Translations under genes and position numbers: made by a program
Notes under the pieces: model-generated
What the model saw: only the letters and a program-made list of their open reading frames with translations
What the model was told of the DNA's origin: nothing
The model's database searches: none
Shown here: in pieces, positions 17,588 to 31,130 of the stretch
How positions within the stretch are numbered: position 1 is the first letter of the stretch
How the letters are laid out: each line of letters opens with the position of its first letter
NCBI GenBank assembly: GCA_016201865.1
Contig: JACQCA010000066.1
Span: 14,867-78,866 of the forward strand
Source of the DNA: Nitrospirota bacterium
GTDB lineage: Bacteria > Nitrospirota > Nitrospiria > JACQBZ01
DNA: 64,000 nucleotides
Direction: 5' to 3'

Positions 17588-18187
17588 ATGCAAAAATCGT
17601 TGACGACGCTCCTTGTGGCGCTCTTCCTGGTCGGTCTCTGTGACATCCGATCCGATTCAAACGCAATGATGCAACATCTGTCCCCGGAGCAGCGAGACGA
17701 CGCGATTAAGTACGGAAAACGGGGTGTTCGAAAAGAGGTGGAAGAGTTTATCAAGGAATGGTCGGTGGATAAGGGGAGCATGGGGTCTGCCTTTATCACG
17801 ACCGAATTTCTGGCGTTAGCTTATGCCGCTCGCCAGGCCGCGCTTCAATCGGCCGACTTAAACAGCTTTGATATTGAAGACACGCTTGCAAAAAGCAGCG
17901 GCAAACTCGTGTTCCGGGTCACCTTGTACGGTAATACCGATAACTTCGCCAAGGATTACACAGCCGTTCTCCAGGTCGGCGGGAATATCCTCCCTTCGAC
18001 GTTCTGGAGCAACCCGCCCGGCGAGCCCTATGGGGATGGGAAAACCAAACCGGCCTTCGTAACCGACAGCGATTATTTTTTCCCGGCCGAGGGGATCGAT
18101 CCGAACGCCTCGGTCACACTCGTGGTGCAGAACAAAGACGGCAAAGAGGTCATGAAATTTCCATTTAATTTTGCCGCGTTGCGTTGA
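17588..18187 (+). CDS. Exported hypothetical protein
   Basis: SD AGGAGG, signal peptide, beta-rich C-terminal half; no recognisable family. Confidence 0.75.
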   Translation: MQKSLTTLLVALFLVGLCDIRSDSNAMMQHLSPEQRDDAIKYGKRGVRKEVEEFIKEWSVDKGSMGSAFITTEFLALAYAARQAALQSADLNSFDIEDTLAKSSGKLVFRVTLYGNTDNFAKDYTAVLQVGGNILPSTFWSNPPGEPYGDGKTKPAFVTDSDYFFPAEGIDPNASVTLVVQNKDGKEVMKFPFNFAALR

Positions 18188-18254
18188 TCCGACTGATTTG
18201 AAGCGTTCGCTCTGCCGATTTCCTGCTCCCGGCCGATGAGCTGCAGCTTAAGTA

Positions 18255-18283
18255 TTGACAAATAAAAAAAATTATGTAAAGAT
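18255..18283 (+). promoter_or_regulatory. Sigma-70 promoter for the first cytochrome genes
   Basis: TTGACA-N17-AAAGAT with extended-10 TG and an A-rich spacer. Confidence 0.5.
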
Positions 18284-18371
18284 CAAGACCCAATCTTAAC
18301 GACGATCATATAGGCATGCTGTCCTGCCTGCTGCGGTTTGCAGCAGCGATGACCTTGAAGAAGGAGTGGAC

Positions 18372-18755
18372 ATGATGAAAATGCGGTGGTTGGTCGGGGG
18401 TTTCCTTTCATCGATCCTCGTTGTCGGTCTTCTCCTCGCGTTCGACGTTTCAACGACTTCGAAAGCCGAGTACGGCGACATCACCCTGAATCACTACGCC
18501 GAAAAAGCCGGAATGCCTCCCGTTGTTTTCCCACATTGGTTTCATCGGATCCGATTCAAGTGCAAAGTTTGCCACCCGGCCATCTTTGAAATGAAGCAAG
18601 GATCGAATGACATCAATATGATCAAAATCATCAAGGGCGATTTCTGCGGCAAGTGTCATAATGGCCGCATCGCCTGGCCTCCCATTTACTGTGATCGGTG
18701 CCATGCCGGAAAGAGCGACATTACGATTCCGAAGGCCAGGGGGTTTGTGAAATAG
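18372..18755 (+). CDS. c7-type triheme cytochrome c (minimal form)
   Basis: Signal peptide; FPHWFH distal His pair; CKVCH, CGKCH, CDRCH; conserved Met in NDINM. Confidence 0.92.
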   Translation: MMKMRWLVGGFLSSILVVGLLLAFDVSTTSKAEYGDITLNHYAEKAGMPPVVFPHWFHRIRFKCKVCHPAIFEMKQGSNDINMIKIIKGDFCGKCHNGRIAWPPIYCDRCHAGKSDITIPKARGFVK

Positions 18756-18807
18756 ACGGACGTCACCCCGCCGGCCTCATCATCCAGAAGAAGAGGGATC
18801 ATAGACC

Positions 18808-19503
18808 ATGAAGCGCCAACATCTCGCGAGCTCTGTCGCCGTCCTCTTCTTTATCGCTGCGGCGGTGGTGTATGTTTTGACCGCCTCTTTCAGAGGGGAA
18901 ATAAGCCGTTCCAGCGCGGCGGAACCCGCTGCCAAAACGCAGGCACAAAAAAACCTTCCCTGCGATCCCTTGATGATCAGCGGCATTACAGGTGAGTGCG
19001 CTGGCACCGGCGACCCCACCGGCTTCGCGGGAGAGGCGGAAAGGGCGGGATTGGCCGACCATCCGCTGGCCTTGGAACTGTCGGACCTTCCGAAAGACCG
19101 TTATGGATTGATCGATTGGGCCATCTCGATCAAGGAGGGAAAGGTCAAGCCGCGAGAATCGCTGAATCCCGATGAGAAGCCGATGCCCCCGTTCGATCTG
19201 GATATCGCGATCTTTACCAAAAGCCAGTTTCAGCCCGACGTCATCTTTCCGCACTTTGTCCATACACTCTGGCTGACCTGCATCAACTGTCATCCGGCCA
19301 TCTTTCCTATGAACGCAAAAGAGGCCAACAAGATGATGACGATGCCCAGAATCGCATCGGGGGAGTTCTGCGGCCGATGCCATAACCGGATTGCTTTTCC
19401 TTTGAGCGACTGCCTGCGTTGCCATGTGAAACCCAAAGATACGCCCCCCATTGATCCCGATTACCAAGGAGTAGCTCAACAGCAACCCAAGGCCCCGCAA
19501 TGA
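18808..19503 (+). CDS. c7-type triheme cytochrome c with N-terminal cap
   Basis: N-terminal hydrophobic segment; FPHFVH; CINCH, CGRCH, CLRCH; extra Cys pair CDPLMISGITGEC. Confidence 0.92.
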   Translation: MKRQHLASSVAVLFFIAAAVVYVLTASFRGEISRSSAAEPAAKTQAQKNLPCDPLMISGITGECAGTGDPTGFAGEAERAGLADHPLALELSDLPKDRYGLIDWAISIKEGKVKPRESLNPDEKPMPPFDLDIAIFTKSQFQPDVIFPHFVHTLWLTCINCHPAIFPMNAKEANKMMTMPRIASGEFCGRCHNRIAFPLSDCLRCHVKPKDTPPIDPDYQGVAQQQPKAPQ

Positions 19504-19586
19504 AACTCGTTTCGTTTGACGCTATTGAGTCTTTCGCTTGAAAGACCGGGGCCTGTCATCTCAGAAGAGTCAGGAGGTTCAACGCC

Positions 19587-20948
19587 ATGAAGCGACGTGG
19601 ACTCTTTACCCGGAACCTCTTCCAAACGTTTACCGCCTTCCTCTTTGTCTGTCTGTGCGCCTTCTTGACCGCCATCGATATAAAAACTGAACCGCCCCAA
19701 TCACAAGCAGCCCTCTCGCCGTCATTTTCAGTGGATAAGAGCGGCATCGTGACGACCAGGGCATCGGGTACCGCAACGGTTACGGCGATGATGAAAGACA
19801 AAACGGTCTCGGTTCAGGTCGTGGCTCCCAAGCCCGGCCCGGCCAAGATCGAGGTGCGGCCCGAAACGGCCTCAGGCCTGGTCGGCGATGATATTCGACT
19901 GAATGCCGTGGCGGTGGATGCCAAGGGAAAAGAAAGGACCGATCTGACCGTGGATTGGAAATCGGGTAATCCGGCCGTCGCCGCCGTTAATGCCGATGGG
20001 ATCGTCTCCCTCAAGGCCGCCGGAACCGTCACGATCGTCGCGTCCGCCGAAGGCAAAACCGCCTCGGCCGTTTTGACCGTCGCGAATCCGCCGACGGCGA
20101 AGGTCGACGTTCGCCCTGCGGTCGCCGCGCTTTTCGTAGGTGAAACCAAACAATTGGAAGCCGTCGCGGTGGATGCCAAGAACGGCGAACAAAAGGACCC
20201 GGCGGCGACTTGGCAAACGGGCAGTCCCTCGATTGCCAGCGTGAGCAATAACGGTCTTGTGACGGCCAATGCCGTCGGATCGGCCGTGATCACGGCTGCC
20301 GTCGGAAGCATCACCAGCAGCCCGGTCACGGTCACGGTGAAGGCCAAGGAATCGTCGTCCCTAAAATTATTACAAGACGAACTGAGGACCAGACTTAGAG
20401 GGAAGGATCCGTCCGAGCTCATCTATCTAAGCGGCATCACGGGTGAGATTGCCGGAACCGGCGATCCGACAAAGTTCGCCGGCGACGCCGAACAGGCCGG
20501 CCTGTCGCAACATCCCCTCGCCTTGGAGCTTGCGGAACTTCCAAAGGACCGATACGGACTGATCGACTGGGCCACCGCTATTAAGACCGAAAAGGTTAAG
20601 CCGCGGTACAGTATTGACCCCAAGGCCGGAGCGGACGAAGTCCCGTTTCAGTTGGACGTCGTCGTTTTTACCAAAAGCCAATTTATGCCCGACGTCATCT
20701 TCCCGCACTTTGTCCATACGCTCTGGCTGACCTGCACCAACTGTCACCCGGCCATTTTCCCCATGAACGCAAAAGAGGCCAACCGGACAATGACGATGCC
20801 CAGAATCGCATCGGGAGAGTTTTGTGGCCGGTGTCATAACCGGGTTGCTTTTCCATTGAGTGACTGCCTGCGTTGCCATGTGAAACCTAAAGAGATGCCC
20901 CCTGTTGACCCGGATTATCAGGCCCAAAACAAGGCGAGGATGCCTTGA
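19587..20948 (+). CDS. Big_2 Ig-like repeat protein fused to a c7-type triheme cytochrome c
   Basis: One partial and two full Big_2-like repeats (WKSGNPAVAAVNADGIV, WQTGSPSIASVSNNGLVTA) followed by CTNCH, CGRCH, CLRCH. Confidence 0.9.
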   Translation: MKRRGLFTRNLFQTFTAFLFVCLCAFLTAIDIKTEPPQSQAALSPSFSVDKSGIVTTRASGTATVTAMMKDKTVSVQVVAPKPGPAKIEVRPETASGLVGDDIRLNAVAVDAKGKERTDLTVDWKSGNPAVAAVNADGIVSLKAAGTVTIVASAEGKTASAVLTVANPPTAKVDVRPAVAALFVGETKQLEAVAVDAKNGEQKDPAATWQTGSPSIASVSNNGLVTANAVGSAVITAAVGSITSSPVTVTVKAKESSSLKLLQDELRTRLRGKDPSELIYLSGITGEIAGTGDPTKFAGDAEQAGLSQHPLALELAELPKDRYGLIDWATAIKTEKVKPRYSIDPKAGADEVPFQLDVVVFTKSQFMPDVIFPHFVHTLWLTCTNCHPAIFPMNAKEANRTMTMPRIASGEFCGRCHNRVAFPLSDCLRCHVKPKEMPPVDPDYQAQNKARMP

Positions 20949-21036
20949 CGAATCCGCATGATCATCGGACGATACAACGGTTCTTGCTCATGCCGAAACC
21001 GGTCTGCTTGCTTACAAAACACCGACGAGAAGCGGA

Positions 21037-21065
21037 TTGACAAGACCATGGCCGTCCGATATAAT
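21037..21065 (+). promoter_or_regulatory. Consensus sigma-70 promoter for the cupredoxin gene and downstream genes
   Basis: TTGACA (21037-42)-N17-TATAAT (21060-65), a perfect match. Confidence 0.85.
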
Positions 21066-21101
21066 TTGTTTAAATATGTTTAGCCGCAGGAGGAGTTGGG
21101 A

Positions 21102-21461
21102 ATGAGAAAAATTGTATCGCTGTTGTTTGGAGTAACAGCCGCCTTTATCTTTCTGCCGTTGTTTTCCGTTCAGGGTGAGGAAGGAACGGCACACGAAATC
21201 ACGATCATCCGAAACGCCTTTAAACTTAACCCTCCGGAGATCACGATCAAGATCGGCGACACGATCAAGTGGACCAATACCGATGAACGCAAACACAATT
21301 TGGCCAGCATTCCGGGATCCGGTCCCACCGATGAACTAGAGATCTTCTCCGTCATGGAACCCGGCGCCGTCTATTCTCACACGTTCCAAACTCCCGGCGA
21401 GTATCCCTATTTCTGCTTCATCCACAACCAGATGACCGGAAAGATCACGGTGGCCAAATAG
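21102..21461 (+). CDS. Plastocyanin/amicyanin-like type-1 copper protein (cupredoxin)
   Basis: Signal peptide; ITIKIGDTIKWTN, KHNL (His), YPYFCFIHNQM (Cys-His-Met ligand loop); SD GGAGGAG. Confidence 0.92.
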   Translation: MRKIVSLLFGVTAAFIFLPLFSVQGEEGTAHEITIIRNAFKLNPPEITIKIGDTIKWTNTDERKHNLASIPGSGPTDELEIFSVMEPGAVYSHTFQTPGEYPYFCFIHNQMTGKITVAK

Positions 21462-21473
21462 CTTCGGCTTCCT

Positions 21474-22046
21474 ATGATGCGGCGCAAAAAGACGGGCGAA
21501 AAGGTCTGGGCTCTCGGTCTGATTTTCCTGATCGGCGGCCTTTATTTCTACGCCCAAAACGGTCTCGAAGCCCAGACCACCGAAAACCCGGCCGCGCCGG
21601 CCCAACCCTCTAAAGAAACAAAGACCGCCGGGGTCCCGCCAGCGGCTACTCCGTCGCAAGAAGAAGAGGAAGAAGAACATCCGCTGGCTTTCGACTACCT
21701 GCCCAAGACAAAACTGGGTTATGTGGACTGGGTCGCCGCCATTAAACAGGGGACCATCAAACCCCGCGACTCGCTGGAGCCCAGCAATCCGCCGGGAATG
21801 CCCCCGCTGAATTTTGACGTGATTTTTAAAGTGCCGGGCGATCTTCCCGACGTCGTTTATCCCCATTATCCTCATACCTTGTGGCTGGACTGCAGAAACT
21901 GCCATCCCAGCATCTTTTTGATGCGGGCGGGTTCAAACCCCGTCACGATGGCCAAGATTTTCAAGGGCGAGTATTGCGGCCGGTGCCACGGCGTGGTGGC
22001 CTTTCCGATCTCGGACTGCTCCCGTTGCCATTCAAGGCCAAAATAA
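21474..22046 (+). CDS. c7-type triheme cytochrome c with acidic linker
   Basis: N-terminal TM/signal; QEEEEEEHPLAF; YPHYPH; CRNCH, CGRCH, CSRCH. Confidence 0.92.
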   Translation: MMRRKKTGEKVWALGLIFLIGGLYFYAQNGLEAQTTENPAAPAQPSKETKTAGVPPAATPSQEEEEEEHPLAFDYLPKTKLGYVDWVAAIKQGTIKPRDSLEPSNPPGMPPLNFDVIFKVPGDLPDVVYPHYPHTLWLDCRNCHPSIFLMRAGSNPVTMAKIFKGEYCGRCHGVVAFPISDCSRCHSRPK

Positions 22047-22110
22047 ACGCATTGACTAATTATTTTCAATCATGATCCTAAAGCATCGTCGTGAAATACA
22101 GGGTGTTGCG

Positions 22111-23364
22111 ATGGCCAAATGGATGAGGGTTGATGGACACACTGCCCCTCGATGGGTTGCGGCCGTTGCGTTTTTTGCCCTCGTTTATGGCGGGATCATG
22201 GCCGACCGTTCTTTCTATTCTGAGATCGCCTCGGCCGCCGGCTCCGATTGGGCTGCCTTGGGGCAACCCGTGAAGGCCTTCTCGTCCGTTTGGGTGGATG
22301 TCGATGCTTCACGGCATGCCCTAAACCCATCCTTGGTATTCGTCGACACCACCCCGTTCTTGGGCTGGATCGAACTCAATACGCACGGCGTCTCGCGTGT
22401 TCATGTCCGACACTGGGACCGTTCCGAATGGGTCAAGGACGGCGGGGCCCTGAACATGGACGCGACCCATCGGGCCTCTGATCTTACCATGAGCTCAAAC
22501 GGTAAAACCCCGTATTTGGCCTGGACGGAACTGACTGCGAGAGACATCCCGCATCTCTATGTCAAACATTTGGTCGGAGATCAATGGGTCATTGACGGCG
22601 CTCGGTTGAATGTGGACCCGACGCATCGGGCCGTCAACCCGGCCCTGGCCGTGGCCGGAACGGTTCCCTATTTGGCCTGGAGCGAGCCGAGTGCGAGGGT
22701 CTTTCAACTTTATGTCAAGCATCTCTCCGATGACGGCTGGCATCTGGACGGGGTGGAGGGGTTGAATCGGTCGCCGACGCGCGACGCGATCGAGCCCGCC
22801 ATCGCGCTTCAGGGGTCGGTGCCTTTCGTTGCCTGGATCGAATTATCCGACCAGAATGTTTATCAGGCCTATGTCAAGCGCCGGGCGGGTTCCACCTGGG
22901 AAGGGTTGGGCGAAAGCCTTAATCTCGATCCGAAGAATCACGCATCGAGTCCTGCGATCACTTTTGTCGGTGAGACTCCGTACGTGGCCTGGACCGAAAT
23001 CAATGCGGAAGGCATATCCCAGATCCATGTGAAACACTGGGACAACGGCTCATGGATATCCGATGGGGGGAGCGTAAACATCGACCCCGCCCGCCACGCC
23101 TTAAGTCCTGCCCTGATAGGAGTCGGCTCGGCCGCGTACATCGCCTGGACGGAGTACGACGCCAAAGGCATTACCCAGATCCACGTCAAACATTGGTCAG
23201 AAACTCGGTGGGAATCGGACGATCCGCAGCTCAACACGATCCCGGCTACGGCCTCGTCGGCCCCTTTTCTGGCGAGTTCAGCGTCTTCTCTGTATGTGGC
23301 CTGGAGAGAGGTCTATCAGAATGGGATATCTCACATCGTTGTCAAGCGCTTGCCGGCTGAATAA
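22111..23364 (+). CDS. Exported or membrane-anchored 7-repeat beta-propeller protein
   Basis: Seven ~52-aa repeats of the form A.sP.l...g..PYvAW.E....g..qi.VKhw....W..dG..lN.dP; hydrophobic N-terminus; alternative start 22072. Confidence 0.8.
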   Translation: MAKWMRVDGHTAPRWVAAVAFFALVYGGIMADRSFYSEIASAAGSDWAALGQPVKAFSSVWVDVDASRHALNPSLVFVDTTPFLGWIELNTHGVSRVHVRHWDRSEWVKDGGALNMDATHRASDLTMSSNGKTPYLAWTELTARDIPHLYVKHLVGDQWVIDGARLNVDPTHRAVNPALAVAGTVPYLAWSEPSARVFQLYVKHLSDDGWHLDGVEGLNRSPTRDAIEPAIALQGSVPFVAWIELSDQNVYQAYVKRRAGSTWEGLGESLNLDPKNHASSPAITFVGETPYVAWTEINAEGISQIHVKHWDNGSWISDGGSVNIDPARHALSPALIGVGSAAYIAWTEYDAKGITQIHVKHWSETRWESDDPQLNTIPATASSAPFLASSASSLYVAWREVYQNGISHIVVKRLPAE

Positions 23365-23851
23365 CCTTTTCTCCGGGGGTGCCATCTTATTGATCTGTCT
23401 TACGATCAACGGCTGCGCACAACCGAAGGCGGTCAAATCCCAAATCGTTAAAAAGTCGGGGTTGGACGCGGAAGGCCGGCCGATCGCCTTGAGCGTTCTC
23501 CCCAAAACCATCGTGGGCGATATCGACTGGGTCGCCGCCCTTAAAGAAGGAATTCTCCAACCCAAGTATTCCCTGGAGGCTAACCCGTCCCCGGAAAGTC
23601 CGATTCTGAACATGGACATCGTCTTTAATATCGGTGAGGCATATCCTGTGCCCAATGTCGTCTTCCCCCATGCCCCGCACACCATGTGGCTTAGCTGCAA
23701 CGCCTGTCATCCGGCCATCTTCATCATGAGACAAGGCGCCAACCCGATCAGCATGGACCGCATCATCAAGGGGGAATACTGCGGCCGGTGCCACGGCGTA
23801 GTGGCCTTTCCGTTCACCGACTGTTTCCGTTGTCACTCCAGACCGAAATAA
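23321..23851 (+). CDS. c7-type triheme cytochrome c lipoprotein
   Basis: LLICLTINGC lipobox; FPHAPH; CNACH, CGRCH, CFRCH; exact start uncertain. Confidence 0.88.
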   Translation: MGYLTSLSSACRLNNLFSGGAILLICLTINGCAQPKAVKSQIVKKSGLDAEGRPIALSVLPKTIVGDIDWVAALKEGILQPKYSLEANPSPESPILNMDIVFNIGEAYPVPNVVFPHAPHTMWLSCNACHPAIFIMRQGANPISMDRIIKGEYCGRCHGVVAFPFTDCFRCHSRPK

Positions 23852-23858
23852 GGAGGGT

Positions 23859-24932
23859 TCATCCCGCGACGGAAAACACGATCGGATAGACGATCGTCAC
23901 ATCGCCGCCGGCGGGAGGGAACTTCCATTGCAGGACTCGCTTGACGAGCGCCTCTTCAAACGGGGTGTTCTTCATCGAACTGGAAACGACACGGCAATCG
24001 ATCACATCGCCGTTTGCGGAGATCATGAACTCGACCGTAACCGTCCCCCGGAGGGCGGGATTCTCGCGAAGGGCCTTATTGTACAGGAAACTGATCCCTC
24101 CTTTGTACGAATCGACGACTTGGGAGATGGACTCGTAACTCCTCAGGTTCTTCCCGTCCTCCGAGCCCTTGATCTGAAACGGGCTTTCCACCGCCGTGGT
24201 TTTGCGTTCCGTCAAAGACGATCCGCCCACATCCGTGTTTAGCTTCCCGATCATTTGATTGATCCCGCCGCTTCCGGTCACGGCCGACTCCCCCGCGGCT
24301 GGTTTCGACTGCTTGATTGACTTCTCCAGCTTGGCCACGATGTCGTCGATTCCCGCGGTTCCGGTCGGCGGCGCTTGGACGGCCGGTCCGGCCGACGTTC
24401 TGGGTGCCTGGCTGAGCCCTTTGATTTCTGAAAAGACCTTTTTCAGTTTTGCGTCCGGAACGCTTTCGGGCTCATTTCGTGTATCGGACTGCTTTAAAAG
24501 CCTGAGAAGACCGCTGTTCATCGCCACCTCAACGTTCTTTCTCCGTTGGGTCTCTTGTTGGGCCTGTATTTCTTCCGGAGTCGGGCCCTGCTGCTTGGCC
24601 ACCTCCTGGGGCGGTGCTGCCGACTCTTTCGCCTGTTCCGGTTTGGGTTCCTCCTTTTTAGTTTCCTTGGGTTTCTCTTCGGCCTTGGGTTTCTCTTCGG
24701 CCTTCGTCTCCTCTTTCTTCTTGACCTGCGGGGGCGGCGGGAGAGGTTTCGCCGCTTCGATGATCATCTTGGCGATACGCGGTGGGAGCCGGGTATAGTC
24801 CTGACGCTCCGGGTTTTTGACCGTGATCAGGTTCATAACAAGCGCCACGGCACCGTACAGAAGCACACAGCCCCAGGCGATTTGCCTAAAGCGTTGGTCA
24901 ATCTCATAGAATTCGACGGTAGTCGTTTTCAT
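23859..24932 (-). CDS. TonB-like energy transducer with AgmX/PglI (GltG-like) C-terminal domain
   Basis: N-terminal TM helix, Pro/Lys/Glu linker, C-terminal LYNKALRENPALRGTVTVEFMISANGDV...VLQWKFPP...TIVYPIVF; no FHA domain. Confidence 0.85.
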   Translation of the reverse strand: MKTTTVEFYEIDQRFRQIAWGCVLLYGAVALVMNLITVKNPERQDYTRLPPRIAKMIIEAAKPLPPPPQVKKKEETKAEEKPKAEEKPKETKKEEPKPEQAKESAAPPQEVAKQQGPTPEEIQAQQETQRRKNVEVAMNSGLLRLLKQSDTRNEPESVPDAKLKKVFSEIKGLSQAPRTSAGPAVQAPPTGTAGIDDIVAKLEKSIKQSKPAAGESAVTGSGGINQMIGKLNTDVGGSSLTERKTTAVESPFQIKGSEDGKNLRSYESISQVVDSYKGGISFLYNKALRENPALRGTVTVEFMISANGDVIDCRVVSSSMKNTPFEEALVKRVLQWKFPPAGGDVTIVYPIVFSVAG

Positions 24933-25432
24933 GTGGACTCTTTCTGGATCACGGCGAGATCGATCTGGCCGAACTCGGACTGGCTGCAGGTGTACATCAC
25001 TTTTTCCAGCAGCCGGAATGGAATCTGTTTATCCCCGAGGATGGTCACGCGGCCCTCAAACGGTTTCCCCGCGCTGGCGTTCGCAAAATACTTTCCCCGC
25101 TCGGCCGCGTAGTCCATCTCTTTTTTGAGGGCCGGGATCAAGAGATCCTCTTCCTTCAGGAGCGGACTGACATCGGCCACCTTTCGGCCGTCTACGATGA
25201 TGTCGGTTTGTGTGATCATCACGGTCAAGGTCGTATGCGGCGTCAACTGGGCTAACGATTCCGGAAGCTTGATTCGTTCCGCCGCAGGGATGGCCGAGGC
25301 CTCCCCCGAGAAATTGTAGAGCAGGAAGAGCACCAGGTTGGTGAACAGATCCACGAGCGACGTCAAGGTCAAAACCATGGAAGCCGCGGAGGCGTTTTTC
25401 CTTCGCTCGGAGAATCGCGATTGAACCCTCAT
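24929..25432 (-). CDS. ExbD/TolR (AglQ/S-like) protein with TM Asp
   Basis: LTLTSLVDLFTNLVLFLL TM; ILGDKQIPFRLLEKVMYTC. Confidence 0.9.
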   Translation of the reverse strand: MRVQSRFSERRKNASAASMVLTLTSLVDLFTNLVLFLLYNFSGEASAIPAAERIKLPESLAQLTPHTTLTVMITQTDIIVDGRKVADVSPLLKEEDLLIPALKKEMDYAAERGKYFANASAGKPFEGRVTILGDKQIPFRLLEKVMYTCSQSEFGQIDLAVIQKEST

Positions 25433-25929
25433 TGAACTTCTCCTAGTGAAACGTTCGGGAACAGGGAATAACTGGTTTTTTTGCCGTCCACCGTTACAAA
25501 GGTGACCCGCGTGGCGTCCATCACCTGGACTAATTGCTCATACGGAATATCCGGCTTGCTTAAGACGATCGCATTGTCGACCTTGGGAAATCGGGCCTTC
25601 AGTTGTTGAAGGAGCGACGAGAGGGCTTGCAGGTCATGCCCTTTGGGAGTTGGCTGGATGAGATCGATCACCTTATTCCCGTTGGCCACAACCAGCCCCT
25701 TCTCGGTAATCGAAATCGTCAGGATCAATTGTTCCCCCGCCGACGGCAATTTGCTCATCAAGTCGGCCGATGCCGGCGGGGGCAGATAGATTTCTAGAAC
25801 CGCCAGTCGCGTGAAGACGGCTGTGATGAGCAGGAACGGGGCCAGCACCACTAACAGGTTCATCATCGGCGTCAGATCGATATCGGTCGATTCAAGACGC
25901 CGGGTTCGTCTTCGGGACCGAAGCAACAT
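25429..25929 (-). CDS. ExbD/TolR (AglQ/S-like) protein with Asn at the TM Asp position
   Basis: DIDLTPMMNLLVVLAPFLLITAVF; PDIPYEQLVQVMDATR; SD AAAGGA before ATG 25929. Confidence 0.9.
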   Translation of the reverse strand: MLLRSRRRTRRLESTDIDLTPMMNLLVVLAPFLLITAVFTRLAVLEIYLPPPASADLMSKLPSAGEQLILTISITEKGLVVANGNKVIDLIQPTPKGHDLQALSSLLQQLKARFPKVDNAIVLSKPDIPYEQLVQVMDATRVTFVTVDGKKTSYSLFPNVSLGEVQ

Positions 25930-26590
25930 TTCCGGGTTTCCTTTCCGGGGCCGCCACCGTTTCACGGTTGGCGTAAAAATTAGTCAGCTTCGTCGAGTAC
26001 TGATCAATCGCATCAATGATCTTGGTGGTTCGGGCCTGAAGAAACGCATAGAACAGAATCAGCGGAACCGCCACGATCAAGCCGAAGGCCGTCATGTTCA
26101 GCGCGACCGATATGCCTCGGGCCAGCAGCACCGCCTTTTGAGACGGATCGGCCGCGGAGACGGCCGCAAAGGCCCCGATCACACCGACGATCGTTCCCAA
26201 CAGACCCAACAAGGTGGCGACGTTCGCCAGAATCGGCAGATAGGCTGTCCGTCGCTCCAAGGGGGGGAGAACCTCCAACATTGCCTCTTCCATTGAACGC
26301 TGGATCGGTTCACGCGAGGCCGTGGGTTTCGCCGCTTTCAGTCCTGCCAGCAGGACATGATAGATCGGCCGCGTGCTGGACTGACAAAGCTTAATGGCGT
26401 CCTCGGTCTTCTGATCCGCCAAAAAATTCTTGACCTGTTTCCAAATGGACTCCCCGTTGGCGGAAGCGCGAGTGATGTAGAGCGTCCGTTCGATCACGAT
26501 GGCCGTTCCAAGGGCCGCCACCAAGAGAACGGGGTACATGAAAAACCCGCCCTCCATAAAAAAATTCCCGATCACGTTGAATATATTCAT
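25892..26590 (-). CDS. MotA/TolQ/ExbB (AglR-like) proton channel
   Basis: GGFFMYPVLL, ANVATLLGLLGTIVGVIGAF, GISVALNMTAFGLIVAVP; SD AAGGAG before ATG 26590. Confidence 0.93.
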   Translation of the reverse strand: MNIFNVIGNFFMEGGFFMYPVLLVAALGTAIVIERTLYITRASANGESIWKQVKNFLADQKTEDAIKLCQSSTRPIYHVLLAGLKAAKPTASREPIQRSMEEAMLEVLPPLERRTAYLPILANVATLLGLLGTIVGVIGAFAAVSAADPSQKAVLLARGISVALNMTAFGLIVAVPLILFYAFLQARTTKIIDAIDQYSTKLTNFYANRETVAAPERKPGNVASVPKTNPAS

Positions 26591-26606
26591 TCCATCTCCT
26601 TTCCGC

Positions 26607-27044
26607 TCAGGGACCCGAACGCGACTCAACAGCTCGTATCTCTCGACTGTATCTCTCCTTATCGAGGGGAGTATAGATCTCTTCCAGGTACCCCCCCTGG
26701 ACTTCCTTCTCCTCCGATAACAACGGGTCCGGTTCCGTTCCCGGGAGAAGACACCCGTTCTTGAATTCACAGACGACCGTAGATAGGACCGGGTCCTTCC
26801 AGGGCAGCGAATCGTTCATCTGGGGTCGTTCGACCGTCCCGACGATCTCGGTCTCCAAAAGCTTCAGCGACCCTAGAACATCTCTGAACTTTCCGGTGAT
26901 CTCGGTTTCCTTGAGCTGGAGCGGTCCGCGGTTCCGCTCGGGCACCTTGGAATCCTGGGCCTGCGTCGAGCCGAGACCGTTCAGCGATCCGGTCACGGCG
27001 ATGACGATGACGATCCGCTTGATGTTAGGGTTGTCCAACCACAT
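26607..27044 (-). CDS. Small exported protein, GltF-like by position and motif
   Basis: Signal peptide; ETEIVGTVERPQMNDSLPWKDP resembles the small conserved protein found between the TPR genes and exbB in such clusters. Confidence 0.6.
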   Translation of the reverse strand: MWLDNPNIKRIVIVIAVTGSLNGLGSTQAQDSKVPERNRGPLQLKETEITGKFRDVLGSLKLLETEIVGTVERPQMNDSLPWKDPVLSTVVCEFKNGCLLPGTEPDPLLSEEKEVQGGYLEEIYTPLDKERYSREIRAVESRSGP

Positions 27045-27732
27045 TCGCCGCTCCATGCGCCGTTCTCTGCTCGAGATCGGCGATCCAGATATCCACAGTC
27101 TGATTTTTGCCGGCCAAGGCTTCATAGTTCTGATAGTAACGCACCGCTTCTTTTGGCTGATTCAGGTAGAGATCGTACAGCACGCCCAAGTTGTAGTAAA
27201 CCGGCGCGAACTTCGGATTCAACGCCATCGCCTTCCGATAAATCTTCTCGGCCTTTTGAAAATCCCCCTGCTCTCGATACGCGATGGCGAGATTGTTATA
27301 CAGTTCGGGGAAGACGGGCCGCGCCGGAGACGCCTCCGGGGCCCGTTCCGAAAGAGCGATCGCCTTTTGATACTCGTCGATGGCTTTGTCCAACATTCCT
27401 CTCCGCCGGTAAAGGATCCCCAGTGTGTTGTGCAGATCGATCCGATCGGGATGGGAAGCCACCAACGGCTCCAGCGCCGACTGGGCGTTTTCGAGCTGCC
27501 CTTGATCGAGATAAGAGAGCGCCTGCCGATAGCCGGCTTGAAGTCCTCCGTCCATTGCTGTTGAACCGGTCGTCTTCGTGGGGGATCCCGCGACCGCCTG
27601 CCCCTTCGTCGCGGACCCTTCCGGGCGAGGGACGGATGCGCAACCGAAGATCAAACCCGTCAGCAGCCACCACAACGCCGCCCGACGGGCGATGGCCGTT
27701 CCCATGCGTGTCCATCGATCCGCGCGGTTCAT
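27025..27732 (-). CDS. TPR lipoprotein (GltE/AglT-like)
   Basis: LIFGC lipobox; three TPRs (HNTLGILYR, YNNLAIAYR, YYNLGVLYDLYL); ends VDIWIADLEQR. Confidence 0.8.
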   Translation of the reverse strand: MNRADRWTRMGTAIARRAALWWLLTGLIFGCASVPRPEGSATKGQAVAGSPTKTTGSTAMDGGLQAGYRQALSYLDQGQLENAQSALEPLVASHPDRIDLHNTLGILYRRRGMLDKAIDEYQKAIALSERAPEASPARPVFPELYNNLAIAYREQGDFQKAEKIYRKAMALNPKFAPVYYNLGVLYDLYLNQPKEAVRYYQNYEALAGKNQTVDIWIADLEQRTAHGAANVVGQP

Positions 27733-30700
27733 GGGGTTAAAACCAGCTCCCGAGGGATGACCTCGTCCAGTTCCCGCTTCCGGTACCGAGCCGGCATGAG
27801 CCTCGCCAGATCGTCGTAGCTCTGCTTGATCCAGGGATCATACAACCCCAGTTGTTGGGCCCGATGGACATTGCTTTCATAAGCTGCGATGGCTTTTTCC
27901 TCGAAGGGAAAGGCCTGCTCCTCAATCAAGAAATTATACTGTTCCAGCTGCTGCGGAGTCAAATCCGCCGGACGTTCCGATTCCAGCAACGCGTTTCGAA
28001 ATTTTTCAAACACCACCCCGATCTTTTGAGTCGCGGCCGTTGTGACCTCGGCCACGCTGAACTCGGTCGCTTGGGCGTACCCTTCCAGAACCTCCTTTAA
28101 CAATTTTTTCTTTTTGGCCAGGTTTTTTTCCAGCGGCGATACCAGCTTCACCTCGTCGAACTGGATCAGGAGTTCATCGGCCATTAGAAGATGGGCCTTG
28201 GCCACATAGTAGCCCGCCGGCGATGCAGCCGCATCGCCTCGCCCGTACCGGTCAATGAGCGTTTGGAGAATCGGCTGGGCTTCCTGCCGACGGCCTTCTT
28301 GGAGCTTGGCCCATGCCAGCTTGAACGTGGTTTCCACAACCTGCTCATACTCGCCCGGGTATTGATCCAGATAGGTCTGGTACACCGCCCCGGCCTTCAT
28401 CCAGTCGCCCAGTTGTTCGTAAAGCCGACTGGCGGCTAACAAAGCCTCTCCGGTCGTCTTGCGATCAACGCCTAATTTTACCACAGATTCGTATCCTTTG
28501 GCTGCCTCTCTCAGGCGGCCGCTCCGCTCATGGATCTTGGCCACCTGGATCGCCGCATGGGGACCGTAGGTTGACGATGGATACTCCTGCAACAAGATCG
28601 TAAACGCCTTGAACGCTCCTTCCGAGTCATCGCGAAGCTGTGCGGTATTACCGGCGTCGAACAACGCCACCGGCGCGATCTCGCTTTCCGGCACTTCGGC
28701 CTGGACCTTCAGGAACCCGGCCTGCGCCTCGGTCTGCTTTCCGGCCGTCTTCAGACCTTCGGCCTGTTTGTATAACGAGGATGCCCACAACCGCTTCAGT
28801 TCTTCGCGCTCCTGATTCTTTGCCGAAATCTCATCCTGCGCCAATTTTCGGTAGACGGCCGCCGCCTGCTCGTACGCACGCTCTTCGAAATAATGATCCG
28901 CAATGAGCCGTTCCGAACGATAGGACAGATCCACTTTGGAAGCCGTCTGGAGCCCCTTGACCTTCTCGGCCAAGTCCTGGGCTTCCGTCACCTTTCCGGA
29001 CGCGAGGAGGGTTCGTCCCACCTGCAACAACACCTCCGGAACCTTTTCGCTCAAGGGATGGTTCGGGTACCGTTGCAGTTGCATCTGAAACAGTTGCAGC
29101 GCTTCATCCAACTGGTTTCGGAGCAGGGCCGCGCTTCCACCGTCGAACAATGCGACCGGGGCGATTTCACTCCCCGGCACTTCCAAATAGACCTTCATGA
29201 ATTCCATCTGCGCTTCCCGCAGATTCCCCTCGGCCTTGAACTCTTCGCCCCGTTTGTACAACGATGTGGCCCACAACCGCCGGAGATCCTCGTCGTCCCC
29301 GACCACTCCGCCCGTTTGCGTCAATTGTTCATAGGCCGCCGCCGCCTGCTCGTACGCATGCTCTTCGAAGTAAGCGTTCCCAATCATTCGCTGGGCCTTG
29401 AGCGAGGGGCTATCCGTCGGAAGAGAGGCCTTGACGATCGCCTCCGCCATCGAACGGGCCGCCGGGAAGTTTCCCGCATGGTAGTAGGTCTCGGCCCCCT
29501 TCCAAAGGACATCCATCACGCGGGAATCGTTCGGAAAGGCCTCCGCAAATCGTTTGCAATTCCGCGCAAGCTTCAGCACCGTCGGACTGATCGTGGGATC
29601 CTGACGTCCCTGACCGATGATCTTATCCAGCGTCACGATGGCGGCGTACCCCGATTCGGCGCTGTCTTGATGAAGGGGATATTCGTAAGCGGTGCGTTCG
29701 TATTCAGCCACGGCCTCGGGGTAGCGTCGAAGCTCAAACAGGCCCTCGGCCGAGAGAAAATTGATTCGCGCAGCTTCCGGCTCTTTTGGAAAGGACTTCA
29801 GGTACCGCCGATACCAGGTGAGCGCTCTCTCGTAATCCGGCGCTCGTCGAGTCTGCTGGGCCTCGGAGTGGTAGAACAGGGCCATCTGGCTGATTAATTG
29901 CCGCGTCATGGGTCGCGCCCGGTTCCGACTCGGGGGTGTCGCCTTCTGGTACCAGACGCTCTCATCGCCGAAACGCTCCACAAAGCTGATGCGTGCGCGA
30001 TTGGCCAGATCCACCAATTTCAACCGTTGATAGGCCTCAATGATGTCCATCTGGACCATCGGCGCCTCCTCATGGAACGGATAAGTTTTGATAAACGTTT
30101 CGTAGGCCCCCACCGCGTCCTGCACCCGTTTCTGGGCCATATACAAATCGCCCTGTTTCCGATAAATGAGATCCTCATAGTCCCGATGTCCCGCTTTTTC
30201 GAAATAATCCTGAATCTTGGTCGGCGGACCGAGGTACGAAAATGCAAAGGCCAGGCCGCGGATGATCTCCATGATCTGGTCCCATTCAGTGGCCGACATC
30301 GACCTCGGATCCAGTCGCGGCGGGTTGCTTCCCCTCGCGACGCGTTTTCGATCCACCAGACGGGTGAATATTCCTGCCGCTCTCTCATATTCTTGAAGCG
30401 AAAAATAAGACCACCCCAGTTTGTACAAAGCGCGCTCAATCAGATCGGGGTCTTTGGAATTGATCACCTTTTGATACGCCTCCGCCGCCTGCCGGTACTG
30501 GTTCGAGTCGTAATATGTTTCGGCCAAACGGAAGACCGCTTCCAGGCTCAACGGACTCGGCGGATAATGGTCCGCCATTCGTCGCAGCACGGCCATCTCC
30601 TGTTCCGTGTCGCCCTCGTCTTCATAAACATGGGCCAATTGGTACAGCACCAAGTCATTTTCAGGTCGGTTGGGGTAGAGGGTCAACAATTTTTCGTAAA

Positions 30701-31130
30701 TCTTTCTGGAACGCGCATGGTCGATTCTGGGAGGAGCCGGCTTCTGGACCGAACGACCCTGCTGGATGAGGTTGAGTTGCTGGTTATATCGGAACAGCTC
30801 CTGACGATACATCTGCTCCTCGAACTTTCGGTACAGATCGGCGAGTTGATGCATCGTCTTCGCCTTCAGTTCGCTCTTTTCTCCGGAATCGTCGAACAGG
30901 CTGCCCTGTTGTGTCCCCATGGTGTTTAAGACGGACTCCTTCGCAATCGGAGCCGATTGGTCTTCCATCACCTCGGTGACGACGGCGTTGATCTTCTTTT
31001 CGTCCAGGACATCCGGTTGCCGGTACAGGTCACACCCGCCCAGGCCGATCCAAACGGCCGCGGCGGCGAGAATCATGCCCTTCTTGACCACCGGGGCGGC
31101 GTCCGGATTTCTTTTAGGGTGCCGTACCAT
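27729..31130 (-). CDS. Large TPR lipoprotein (GltD/AgmU-like)
   Basis: LGGC lipobox; many TPRs; C-terminal LEEQAFPFEEKAIAAYE-like motif (IEEQAFPFEEKAIAAYESN...PWIKQSYDDL); start at ATG 31130 (SD CAGGA) or 31076. Confidence 0.8.
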   Translation of the reverse strand: MVRHPKRNPDAAPVVKKGMILAAAAVWIGLGGCDLYRQPDVLDEKKINAVVTEVMEDQSAPIAKESVLNTMGTQQGSLFDDSGEKSELKAKTMHQLADLYRKFEEQMYRQELFRYNQQLNLIQQGRSVQKPAPPRIDHARSRKIYEKLLTLYPNRPENDLVLYQLAHVYEDEGDTEQEMAVLRRMADHYPPSPLSLEAVFRLAETYYDSNQYRQAAEAYQKVINSKDPDLIERALYKLGWSYFSLQEYERAAGIFTRLVDRKRVARGSNPPRLDPRSMSATEWDQIMEIIRGLAFAFSYLGPPTKIQDYFEKAGHRDYEDLIYRKQGDLYMAQKRVQDAVGAYETFIKTYPFHEEAPMVQMDIIEAYQRLKLVDLANRARISFVERFGDESVWYQKATPPSRNRARPMTRQLISQMALFYHSEAQQTRRAPDYERALTWYRRYLKSFPKEPEAARINFLSAEGLFELRRYPEAVAEYERTAYEYPLHQDSAESGYAAIVTLDKIIGQGRQDPTISPTVLKLARNCKRFAEAFPNDSRVMDVLWKGAETYYHAGNFPAARSMAEAIVKASLPTDSPSLKAQRMIGNAYFEEHAYEQAAAAYEQLTQTGGVVGDDEDLRRLWATSLYKRGEEFKAEGNLREAQMEFMKVYLEVPGSEIAPVALFDGGSAALLRNQLDEALQLFQMQLQRYPNHPLSEKVPEVLLQVGRTLLASGKVTEAQDLAEKVKGLQTASKVDLSYRSERLIADHYFEERAYEQAAAVYRKLAQDEISAKNQEREELKRLWASSLYKQAEGLKTAGKQTEAQAGFLKVQAEVPESEIAPVALFDAGNTAQLRDDSEGAFKAFTILLQEYPSSTYGPHAAIQVAKIHERSGRLREAAKGYESVVKLGVDRKTTGEALLAASRLYEQLGDWMKAGAVYQTYLDQYPGEYEQVVETTFKLAWAKLQEGRRQEAQPILQTLIDRYGRGDAAASPAGYYVAKAHLLMADELLIQFDEVKLVSPLEKNLAKKKKLLKEVLEGYAQATEFSVAEVTTAATQKIGVVFEKFRNALLESERPADLTPQQLEQYNFLIEEQAFPFEEKAIAAYESNVHRAQQLGLYDPWIKQSYDDLARLMPARYRKRELDEVIPRELVLTP

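Follow-up and report, generated by a model that had tools for sequence, protein, structure and literature searches.

The gene that we call cyt3, found in a 64,000-nucleotide stretch of DNA from a Nitrospirota bacterium (the window), encodes a rare, undescribed variant of the Nitrospirota tethered-cytochrome family: a triheme cytochrome carried on immunoglobulin-like (Ig) repeats. A hydrophobic segment at its N-terminus is followed by two and a half Big_2 repeats, of which the half comes first, and by a c7-type triheme domain at the C-terminus. Taking all the evidence together, we hold with moderate confidence that it acts as an electron relay of the periplasm, tethered or positioned on its Ig stalk. 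Its place in the periplasm, the membrane that bears its anchor, its partners and the direction in which electrons flow are inferred; localisation of the protein is read from its signal sequence. Searches of the literature on triheme cytochromes and cupredoxins of Nitrospirota and on multiheme cytochromes with Big_2 or Ig-like domains, together with the text of the Manganitrophaceae comparative paper, returned no description of this architecture or of the operon around it.

The reading frame of cyt3 (positions 19587-20948, plus strand; 453 aa) is intact, begins at the first start codon past a stop and has an AGGAGG 8 nt 5' of the ATG. In Logan contigs of four groundwater runs, all from the same study, positions 19400-20732 of the window recur with zero differences, and a single contig in run X3 covers 20423-21100. 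The allele is fixed at a word depth of 25-36x in two of these runs and present at ~5x in the two others. Because four independent assemblies match without differences, cyt3, including its shortened N-terminal part, is not a mis-assembly. Repeat collapse as the origin of the short N-terminal part was likewise ruled out, as the deletion joins non-equivalent positions of two repeats. The gene was absent from the RNA runs in which we sought evidence of expression. The features of cyt3 and its surroundings are listed in the table.

Table. Features of the Ig-stalked cytochrome gene cyt3 and its operon (positions in the window; residues are those of the cyt3 protein)
Feature	Position	Strand	Basis or remark
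Conserved operon context	17588..23851	+	Synteny, Pfam
Tandem paralogue cyt2, 231 aa	18808..19503	+	Same head without Ig stalk; head DNA about 80% identical to cyt3
N-terminal export/anchor segment, residues 1-29	19587..19673	+	MKRRGLFTR and a 19-residue apolar stretch ending LTA
Half Big_2 repeat, residues 47-80	19725..19826	+	Alignment, AF2
Complete Big_2 Ig-like domain A, residues 87-166	19845..20084	+	Pfam, AF2, Foldseek, self-alignment
Complete Big_2 Ig-like domain B, residues 170-252	20094..20342	+	Pfam, AF2, Foldseek, self-alignment
Variable linker with predicted helix, residues 253-281	20343..20429	+	43% mean pairwise identity; AF2
Conserved pre-cap (SGITGEIAGTGDP...HP) and cap (LPKDRYGLIDW..KPR), residues 282-364	20430..20678	+	Homologue alignments
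c7-type triheme domain, residues 365-431	20679..20879	+	Pfam, TIGR04257, GSU1996 alignment
Pro-rich C-terminal tail, residues 432-453, and stop codon	20880..20948	+	
Cupredoxin	21096-21461	+	
cyt4	21474-22046	+	
430-aa repeat protein	22072-23364	+	No Pfam match
cyt5	23294-23851	+	Lipobox LTINGC, followed by AQ

The first-pass annotation had placed one partial and two complete Big_2 repeats between the hydrophobic N-terminus and the c7 domain, and Pfam, self-alignment and AlphaFold2 (AF2) all bear this out. Pfam Big_2 (PF02368) matches with 49.3 bits against a gathering cut-off of 22.8, in two stretches (the best at residues 171-249), and a Big-like match covers residues 207-253; in the Pfam scan of cyt3 these two and two cytochrome families were the only ones found. 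Domains A and B share 42% identity (E 8e-19), and the partial repeat matches the half of a repeat that lies toward the C-terminus (E 7e-6 and 4e-5). In the AF2 model the two complete domains form Ig-like beta-sandwiches with a pLDDT of 93-98 per 10-residue block (residues 87-252), and the half repeat forms four strands with a pLDDT of 76-88. A Foldseek search of the PDB ranks the Big_2 tandem of Leptospira LigA first (8gyr; E 9e-18, 181/183 columns aligned). The repeats are thus true Ig folds of the Big_2 type, and the refutation that the first-pass annotation allowed for on this point does not apply. Its label 'invasin/intimin-type' applies to the fold alone: against a cut-off of 1400, the intimin model NF033627 reaches 19.4 bits and matches nothing but the Ig repeats, and with a 29-residue N-terminal signal/anchor and a C-terminal cytochrome the protein was rejected as an inverse autotransporter.

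The stalk contains no Cys or His and is less conserved than any other folded part, with a pairwise identity of about 50% versus 72-82% for the head. Rough dN/dS values are about 0.2 for the stalk and about 0.04 for the head (versus L001; dS is saturated, above 1). Together with the identities, these values indicate that the head is far more strongly constrained than the stalk. Repeat number among relatives ranges from 2 to 4 with at least four deletion patterns, some relatives having kept repeats 1-2 and others repeats 3-4. The lack of Cys and His, the low conservation and the variable repeat count are consistent with a structural spacer; the variable length argues against a precisely tuned distance. 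In two relatives (L011 and L039) this kind of stalk is topped by a different head, an orphan non-heme domain of ~110 aa, and the gene keeps its place in the operon.

The head belongs to the c7-type triheme class (TIGR04257/PF14522) by its profile scores and by having three CxxCH motifs and three distal ligands within about 70 residues. Cytochrome_C7 (PF14522) matches residues 370-431 with 40.3 bits (cut-off 24.8) and NCBIfam TIGR04257 matches residues 365-431 with 57.5 bits (cut-off 40). CxxCH occurs exactly three times, at residues 383-387 (positions 20733-20747), 413-417 (20823-20837) and 427-431 (20865-20879), and the candidate distal ligands are H374 (20706), H377 (20715) and M404 (20796). 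All six elements are invariant in alignments of 59 and of 79 homologues and align to GSU1996 of Geobacter sulfurreducens, which is also the nearest solved structure to the head (3ov0; E 1e-26); all four GSU1996 domains align to residues ~365-431. By homology to GSU1996, the head would carry two bis-His hemes and one His/Met heme. Residues L318, P319, G324, W328 and P339 of the preceding cap region are invariant across the 59 homologues, and in multi-module relatives cap and c7 domain form a repeating unit too. Two AF2 runs (59 and 79 sequences) modelled the head with a pLDDT of 40-69 and a mean pLDDT of 51.6, respectively, which makes the models unusable, and the role of the cap and the heme geometry are for that reason inferred from GSU1996 only. 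One member of the head family bears a peptidoglycan-binding SPOR domain.

The N-terminus of cyt3 has four basic residues followed by the 19-residue apolar stretch (best Kyte-Doolittle 19-residue window mean 2.14), modelled by AF2 as a helix at residues 9-27. The segment is homologous to the lipoprotein signal peptide of the orthologues, of which 10 of 14 aligned have a site of GC followed by T, V or A. Where relatives have LTFGC followed by TKPE, cyt3 reads CAFLTAIDIK; there is no Cys in register, and the lipobox pattern [LVI][ASTVI][GAS]C is not found at the end of the signal peptide. Judged from these alignments, the family consists of lipoproteins and the window copy is not one. The hydrophobic anchor claimed by the first-pass annotation needs correcting: in relatives the anchor is a lipid on the Cys, with the signal peptide cleaved off. 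The window protein may keep its N-terminal helix uncleaved and so be anchored in the inner membrane, or cleavage after LTA may set it free. The latter would yield a freely soluble periplasmic species, an outcome that the first-pass annotation had itself named as incompatible with its reading, and with the anchor uncertain the term 'tethered' might not hold for this copy. The window copy is a derived allele, with about 134 codons deleted and the lipobox Cys lost; the half repeat is the leftover of repeat 2 of four-repeat orthologues after this deletion and not a designed element. Three clusters (P0005, P0008 and P0009), which form a separate group with a similar short form, also have no lipobox, and their heads are intact.

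The same fusion of Ig repeats and cytochrome was found in about 22 related clusters of proteins, every one of which comes from uncultured Nitrospirota or from metagenomes. Most have a lipobox Cys, a Pro-rich linker, 2-4 Big_2 repeats and the conserved head of ~170-190 aa. In other Nitrospirota the equivalent gene encodes a lipoprotein in which a disordered Pro/Ala/Glu spacer of 60-100 residues replaces the Ig repeats. These non-Ig homologues, of which P0148 and P0150 are further examples, have a lipobox and a segment of 105-155 residues from the Cys to LPKD, consisting to 62-73% of P/A/E/K/Q/T/S. The proposal of a heme head on a spacer is borne out across the family, where either 2-4 Big_2 repeats or a disordered segment lies behind the lipobox Cys. 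A spacer between anchor and triheme head is the conserved design of the family, and the Ig stalk is its structured version.

Further support for a role in electron transfer within the envelope may come from the operon. In order, its members are a 199-aa protein, cyt1 (129 aa), cyt2, cyt3, cupredoxin, cyt4, the 430-aa repeat protein and cyt5, and every product has an N-terminal export signal. None of the cluster proteins matched an outer-membrane barrel family, and the 199-aa protein, like the 430-aa protein, has no Pfam match at all. Synteny of the operon extends to L001-L005, L009-L011, L043 and L044. A core of cyt1, spacer-cyt2, cupredoxin and cyt4, with or without a ~400-aa protein and cyt5, occurs in unrelated neighbourhoods of many other Nitrospirota. 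We define this Nitrospirota c7/cupredoxin operon here by synteny; its gene order is found in the window and in L001-L011, L013-L022, L031-L038, L043 and L044. A functional tie to the adjacent TonB-ExbB-ExbD-TPR genes was rejected, as these are syntenic only in the Ig subclade and absent beside the core operon elsewhere. In a Gallionellaceae genome, related c7 genes adjoin genes for a SurA-like protein, an NHL-repeat protein and an MtrC-like multiheme cytochrome, consistent with a periplasmic link to an outer-membrane conduit. In trees of the heads, the short cyt2 of the subclade forms a well-supported clade (98/99) nested among Ig-type heads, and the Ig-type heads of L004, P0008 and P0004 group with cyt2, indicating exchange between cyt2 and the Ig-type gene. 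The trees are poorly supported at their deep nodes, and both genes are already present in the divergent P0019 lineage.

Overall these results suggest the following role. The protein would be exported by Sec as a c-type cytochrome whose working part is the C-terminal head (pre-cap, cap and c7 triheme domain), and the Big_2 domains would keep this head away from the N-terminal attachment point. In the subclade the Pro-rich linker and the Ig domains would form the tether, a part played elsewhere by the disordered segment. An Ig domain is roughly 3.5-4 nm long, and the stalk would set the distance between heme and membrane at about 7-8 nm in the window copy and 14-16 nm in relatives with four repeats. 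Alongside the other four c7-type cytochromes and the cupredoxin of the operon, the stalked head would most likely serve as a positioned electron relay in the periplasm, passing electrons between donors or acceptors of the envelope and respiratory complexes of the inner membrane.

A different destination, which we consider unlikely, is the cell surface: as a lipoprotein flipped onto the outer face of the outer membrane, the protein would project its head to minerals, cells or extracellular cytochrome filaments, as do MtrC and OmcA of Shewanella or PgcA of Geobacter. Big_2 arrays are typical of surface proteins, and in the fold search LigA and S-layer proteins matched best. The orthologues are lipoproteins without Asp at +2, although Nitrospirota might not follow the +2 sorting rule of E. 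coli. PgcA is itself a lipoprotein cytochrome exported past the periplasm (PMC10570954). Against this, the conserved operon has no recognised barrel, secretion or surface-export component, and for want of a recognisable barrel the first-pass suggestion of positioning toward the surface found no support in the cluster. Its neighbours in the operon are small c7 cytochromes and a cupredoxin whose signal peptides are ordinary, the nearest characterised relative of the head resides in the periplasm and the SPOR domain of one family member binds peptidoglycan. Moreover, the head remains intact in the window copy and in the three clusters that have no lipobox.

The stalk could have a purpose other than spacing. 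Ig-like domains often serve protein-protein or glycan binding, and the repeats may be docking modules for a specific partner (the 430-aa repeat protein, peptidoglycan or a polysaccharide) that place the head in a fixed complex. The purifying selection on the Ig region, the constant presence of the repeat protein in the operon and the non-heme heads of L011 and L039, which suggest that the stalk may have a function of its own, speak for docking. We nevertheless think docking improbable: repeat number and identity vary freely, so that no single repeat is indispensable, non-Ig homologues in the same operon rely on a disordered tether and no other folded part of the protein is as poorly conserved. 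Finally, the window copy could be a redundant duplicate of cyt2 that is heading to a pseudogene after its deletion and lipobox loss. That deletion and lipobox loss relative to the closest relatives, a half Ig domain unable to fold alone and a full copy of the head in the adjoining cyt2 would fit such decay. Decay is very unlikely, as the frame is intact with a good ribosome-binding site, all invariant head residues are retained and the rough head dN/dS versus L001 is low. In addition, the same allele is fixed in two of the runs and present in the two others at the depths given above, and the similarly short, lipobox-free group of P0005, P0008 and P0009 has persisted. We retain the periplasmic relay on an Ig stalk as the best explanation.

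A bolder extension of this relay, which we offer tentatively, is a modular chassis in which a lipid anchor, a Pro-rich linker and a variable number of Big_2 repeats hold exchangeable heads at set periplasmic heights in this lineage of Nitrospirota; the head would usually be the cap with the triheme c7 module and in L011 and L039 the orphan domain, with heads swapped by recombination with cyt2 and length re-tuned by deletions of whole repeats. If true, this would make periplasmic electron transfer a matter of fixed geometry and not of diffusion. The natural variants (2, 2.5, 3 or 4 repeats, with or without a lipid anchor) are a ready series for testing whether distance matters. The analysis also brings to light a conserved, apparently undescribed c7-cytochrome and cupredoxin operon in uncultured groundwater Nitrospirota, for which oxidation of nitrite or metals is the presumed way of life.

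Electron crossing of the periplasm is usually explained by diffusing small cytochromes (PpcA-E of Geobacter) or by disordered tethers (Laz of Neisseria, PgcA of Geobacter). The PpcA proteins, which are freely soluble, resemble cyt3 in having a c7 fold with three hemes and are likewise presumed to carry electrons in the periplasm; they are about 70 aa long and their similarity to the cyt3 head is marginal (E 0.6-0.9). The periplasmic triheme cytochromes are described as all bis-His (PMC10138318), whereas the window protein has Met as the third distal ligand. GSU1996 is periplasmic with one His/Met heme per domain (PMC10138318). It shares the heme domain pattern of F-H-x2-H, CxxCH, T-M, CGxCH and CxxCH (PDB 3OV0, TIGR04257). 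Unlike the window protein, with its single domain on an Ig stalk, GSU1996 is a dodecaheme 'periplasmic nanowire' cytochrome with four c7 domains in a row and has neither Ig repeats nor the cap (LPKDxYGLIDW..KPR). Intimin, invasin and Leptospira LigA/LigB are alike in the Big_2 fold and its tandem, rod-like arrangement. The other parts of intimin are a barrel, LysM and lectin domains, whereas no barrel, LysM or lectin family was found in the Pfam scan of cyt3, and its cargo is a cytochrome. A combination of hemes and Ig-like fold is also seen in the pentaheme selenoenzyme MccSep, which has a heme 'cap' and an Ig-like beta-sandwich 'stem' (PMC13510729). MccSep is not homologous: its single, C-terminal Ig-like domain provides the catalytic selenocysteine as part of the active site and does not serve as an N-terminal spacer of several repeats.

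Parallels to the relay also lie among tethered carriers. Laz, a lipid-modified azurin, hangs from the outer membrane into the periplasm on an Ala/Pro-rich linker; a redox carrier made as a lipoprotein, it follows the same logic as the family members with disordered tethers. It differs in being a cupredoxin from an unrelated lineage, on a disordered linker without Ig domains. Laz was shown to lack surface exposure (PMC6277709). PgcA of G. sulfurreducens was described as a 'heme-tethered redox string', a lipoprotein with three hemes whose redox domains are set apart by non-catalytic linkers; these linkers are proposed to determine how far electrons can be transferred, about 20 nm at full stretch (PMC10570954). 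By this published description, PgcA has three monoheme domains on disordered Pro-Thr repeats and is released outside the cell, whereas the window protein has one triheme head on folded Ig domains and is probably periplasmic; the resemblance is one of concept only. Fusions of redox domains to spacers are already known in principle, and a triheme head borne on a folded Ig stalk would add to diffusing cytochromes and disordered tethers a third solution, a rigid support of adjustable length.

The Ig-stalked cytochrome (cyt3, Table) is encoded by an intact ORF whose ATG is preceded 8 nt upstream by AGGAGG, giving a product of 453 aa. Independent assemblies of four groundwater metagenome runs yielded contigs identical to the window over 19400-20732, and one metagenome contig covers 20423-21100. 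Between ~20703 and 20746 the metagenome (Logan) contigs break, some running on into the copy of cyt2, the tandem paralogue without an Ig stalk. The first-pass annotation had placed one partial and two complete Big_2-like repeats between a hydrophobic N-terminus and a c7 domain, and Pfam, NCBIfam and self-alignment of the repeats confirmed this arrangement in every detail. Big_2 is matched over two stretches (49.3 bits, gathering score 22.8; Pfam also matches Big-like), Cytochrome_C7 over residues 370-431 and the NCBIfam c7-type triheme domain TIGR04257 over residues 365-431 (57.5 bits against 40). CxxCH occurs exactly three times, starting at residues 383, 413 and 427. The repeats are Ig folds: AlphaFold2, run with 59 homologues, models both Ig domains with pLDDT 93-98, and the PDB entry that matches best is Leptospira LigA, with its tandem Big_2 pair (E 9e-18). 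The stalk is a Big_2 member, and the protein as a whole is no intimin or invasin; it consists of an N-terminal export/anchor segment, a Big_2 stalk and a c7-type triheme head.

Features of the cytochrome cluster and of the Ig-stalked protein
Feature	Position	Length	Strand	Remarks
199-aa protein	17588-18187	199 aa	+	heads cluster; exported; conserved in all Ig-subclade loci
cyt1		129 aa	+	second of eight co-directional genes
cyt2	18808-19503	231 aa	+	third gene
cyt3, Ig-stalked	19587-20948	453 aa	+	fourth gene
cupredoxin		121 aa	+	fifth gene
cyt4		190 aa	+	sixth gene
repeat protein		430 aa	+	seventh gene; without Pfam match
cyt5, lipoprotein	23294-23851		+	eighth gene; lipobox LTINGC↓AQPK
half repeat of cyt3	residues 47-80			aligns to C-terminal half of a repeat only
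complete Big_2 repeats of cyt3	residues 87-166 and 170-252			42% identical to each other, E 8e-19

A search of 5.8 billion proteins returned ~22 clusters with both Big_2 and a c7 domain, five of them named (as Nitrospirae bacterium or "c(7)-type cytochrome triheme protein") and the rest unnamed metagenome proteins, together with many 250-330-aa homologues carrying the c7 domain only. In 10 of 14 aligned fused proteins a canonical lipobox (e.g. LLLTFGC↓TKPEQP) precedes a Pro-rich linker; after this linker come 2-4 Big_2 repeats, then a second, variable linker and lastly a head of ~170-190 aa. The head is highly conserved among the 14, and repeat number varies through whole-repeat deletions in at least four distinct patterns, with repeats 1-2 retained in some proteins, 3-4 in others and 1-3 in others. 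The window copy most resembles the four-repeat proteins (67-72% identity) and lacks ~134 codons that they have, window 19507-19730 corresponding to 1901-2527 of the homologous locus L001. Judging from this alignment, the half repeat is a deletion scar, since the missing stretch comprises the linker, the whole of repeat 1 and the N-terminal half of repeat 2. The predicted lipid-attachment site is gone as well, the relatives reading GC↓TKPE where the window copy reads TAIDIKTEPP. In a second group that has lost the lipobox and the first repeats (clusters P0005, P0008 and P0009, 444-445 aa), VYA↓Q is a plausible site for signal peptidase I. None of the lipobox-bearing relatives has Asp at +2, and the +2 rule is enterobacterial. 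The N-terminus of the window copy consists of four basic and then 19 apolar residues (best Kyte-Doolittle window 2.14 on average), with residues 9-27 predicted by AlphaFold2 to be helical. The apolar segment proposed as an anchor is present; for this long segment abutting LTA↓ID, an uncleaved inner-membrane anchor and a signal peptidase I site are about equally probable.

Separation of anchor and head extends beyond the fused proteins. In non-Ig homologues the mature protein is predicted to begin at the lipidated Cys, and between this Cys and LPKD lie 105-155 residues with a combined Pro, Ala, Glu, Lys, Gln, Thr and Ser content of 62-73%, including a low-complexity tether of ~60-100 residues before the pre-cap. 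The tether reaches ~190 residues in P0150; P0148 combines one Big_2 domain with long disordered stretches, and in P0139 Big_13 (Ig-like) is weakly matched between lipobox and head. As read from these sequences, a spacer, whether Ig stalk or low-complexity tether, is a trait of the whole cytochrome family.

We place the head in the c7-type triheme family, nearest GSU1996 (3OV0), the closest solved structure by sequence (E 1e-26), all four c7-type domains of which align to residues ~365-431. GSU1996 is periplasmic and has one His/Met heme in each domain, while hemes of the PpcA family are all bis-His (PMC10138318). Neither the three CxxCH motifs nor H374, H377 and M404 vary in 59 or in 79 homologues, so the head is expected to have one His/Met heme and two bis-His hemes. 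Unlike GSU1996, the stalked cytochrome has a conserved cap, LPKDxYGLIDW..KPR, in front of its heme domain. The cap-c7 unit is widespread, with at least 1000 matches at E<=0.001 and 613 at E<=1e-10 (HMMER, 1.84 billion representatives) and 2-9 copies in many of the matches listed. Among the best 150 representatives Big_2 occurs in three, and a lipobox in ~30% of those with complete N-termini (crude pattern). FGE-sulfatase, HEAT repeats, class I cytochrome c and a peptidoglycan-binding SPOR domain occur once each. Fusions of the cap-c7 unit to these domains are seen in proteins P0173, P0182 and P0199 and, for SPOR, in one member of alignment A4.

The gene order of the cluster is the same in every locus with an Ig-stalked orthologue (L001-L005, L009, L010, L043 and L044). 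The 199-aa protein has no Pfam or NCBIfam match. Upstream of its gene, L002-L005 carry a 294-315-aa gene of unknown family; in the window the hydrolase and 199-aa genes lie too close together to accommodate it. The longest cyt5 ORF, with the lipobox 41 residues in, shares 71 nt with the end of the 430-aa gene, and translation therefore probably starts at a Met further downstream. A perfect sigma-70 consensus, TTGACA-17-TATAAT (21037-21065, +), lies in the 147-nt gap between cyt3 and the cupredoxin gene, and by this sequence the stalked cytochrome may be the last gene of the first of two transcription units. Converging on the cluster from the minus strand (23859-31193) are a TonB-like gene, two ExbD, one ExbB and TPR genes. 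This downstream block is syntenic in all Ig-subclade loci (L001-L003, L005, L043, L044) and absent beside the core operon in other Nitrospirota (L006-L008). The core operon itself (cyt1, a spacer lipoprotein cyt2, cupredoxin and cyt4, with or without a ~400-aa protein and cyt5) is present in many other Nitrospirota MAGs in unrelated neighborhoods. A survey of 185,579 species, one genome each, gave 34 loci, 31 from Nitrospirota (30) or "uncultured bacterium" and three distant relatives from Novimethylophilus, Gallionellaceae and Azoarcus.

In the window, the cyt2 and cyt3 heads share ~80% DNA identity across 491 nt. Trees of the heads place the short cyt2 proteins of the Ig subclade in one supported clade (98/99) inside the Ig-type heads, and because the Ig-type heads of L004, P0008 and P0004 group with cyt2, some lineages appear to have exchanged heads between the tandem genes. 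Ig-type proteins and ancestral spacer lipoproteins have in common a lipobox and, in the pre-cap, the motif K-D-x-D-P-S-x-L-I-Y-L-S; the pre-cap reads KDxDPSxLIYLSG...GEI in both, whereas short cyt2 has LPCDP...GEC, with a Cys pair. From these shared features we infer that the Ig-stalked gene descends from an ancestral spacer lipoprotein and that short cyt2 is a derived duplicate, deep tree nodes being weak. The divergent P0019 lineage already carries both genes. In the same operon slot, two Nitrospirota genomes, L011 (2775-3992) and L039 (291-1520), encode a lipoprotein with the same lipobox, Pro-rich linker and Big_2 stalk. Its head is an orphan domain without heme (~110 aa, NINVEVLDYSWK..., three Cys) that has no Pfam match and occurs in only four clusters in 5.8 billion proteins.

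We propose that the stalked cytochrome would be an exported triheme electron carrier on a folded spacer, and that its head, the co-encoded c7 cytochromes and the cupredoxin would form a positioned electron relay in the periplasm. At ~3.5-4 nm per Big_2 domain, the approximate length in invasin and Lig structures, the hemes of the window protein would lie ~8-15 nm from the attachment point, linkers included, and those of the four-repeat relatives correspondingly further. This periplasmic relay is the best reading and a plausible one. The first-pass annotation had also considered a heme head held toward the surface; the spacer stands as a family trait, but surface display is less likely than the relay. 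The Gallionellaceae MAG (L041:3081-14389) has distant relatives of cyt1 and of cap-c7 cytochromes, flanked on one side by a SurA-like PPIase and a 705-aa protein without Pfam match and on the other by an NHL-repeat protein and an 898-aa MtrC-like multiheme cytochrome, a gene set that looks like an outer-membrane electron conduit.

Ig repeats serving as docking modules are likewise the less likely account of the stalk. In the window copy it has no Cys and no His, and it is less conserved than the head (mean pairwise identity ~50% versus 72-82%) with a higher rough dN/dS (~0.2 versus 0.04, dS being saturated), which fits a structural spacer that must fold and carries no chemistry. A decaying duplicate is also less probable than a positioned relay. 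The window genome has the fusion as a shortened allele without lipobox. The stalked cytochrome is real and is conserved within a small clade, and it is plausible biologically. Our literature search found no paper describing the Ig-stalked c7 architecture or the c7/cupredoxin operon. Alike in concept are Neisseria Laz and Geobacter PgcA, both tethered redox lipoproteins (PMC6277709, PMC10570954); their linkers are disordered, in contrast to the folded Ig domains of the stalked cytochrome.
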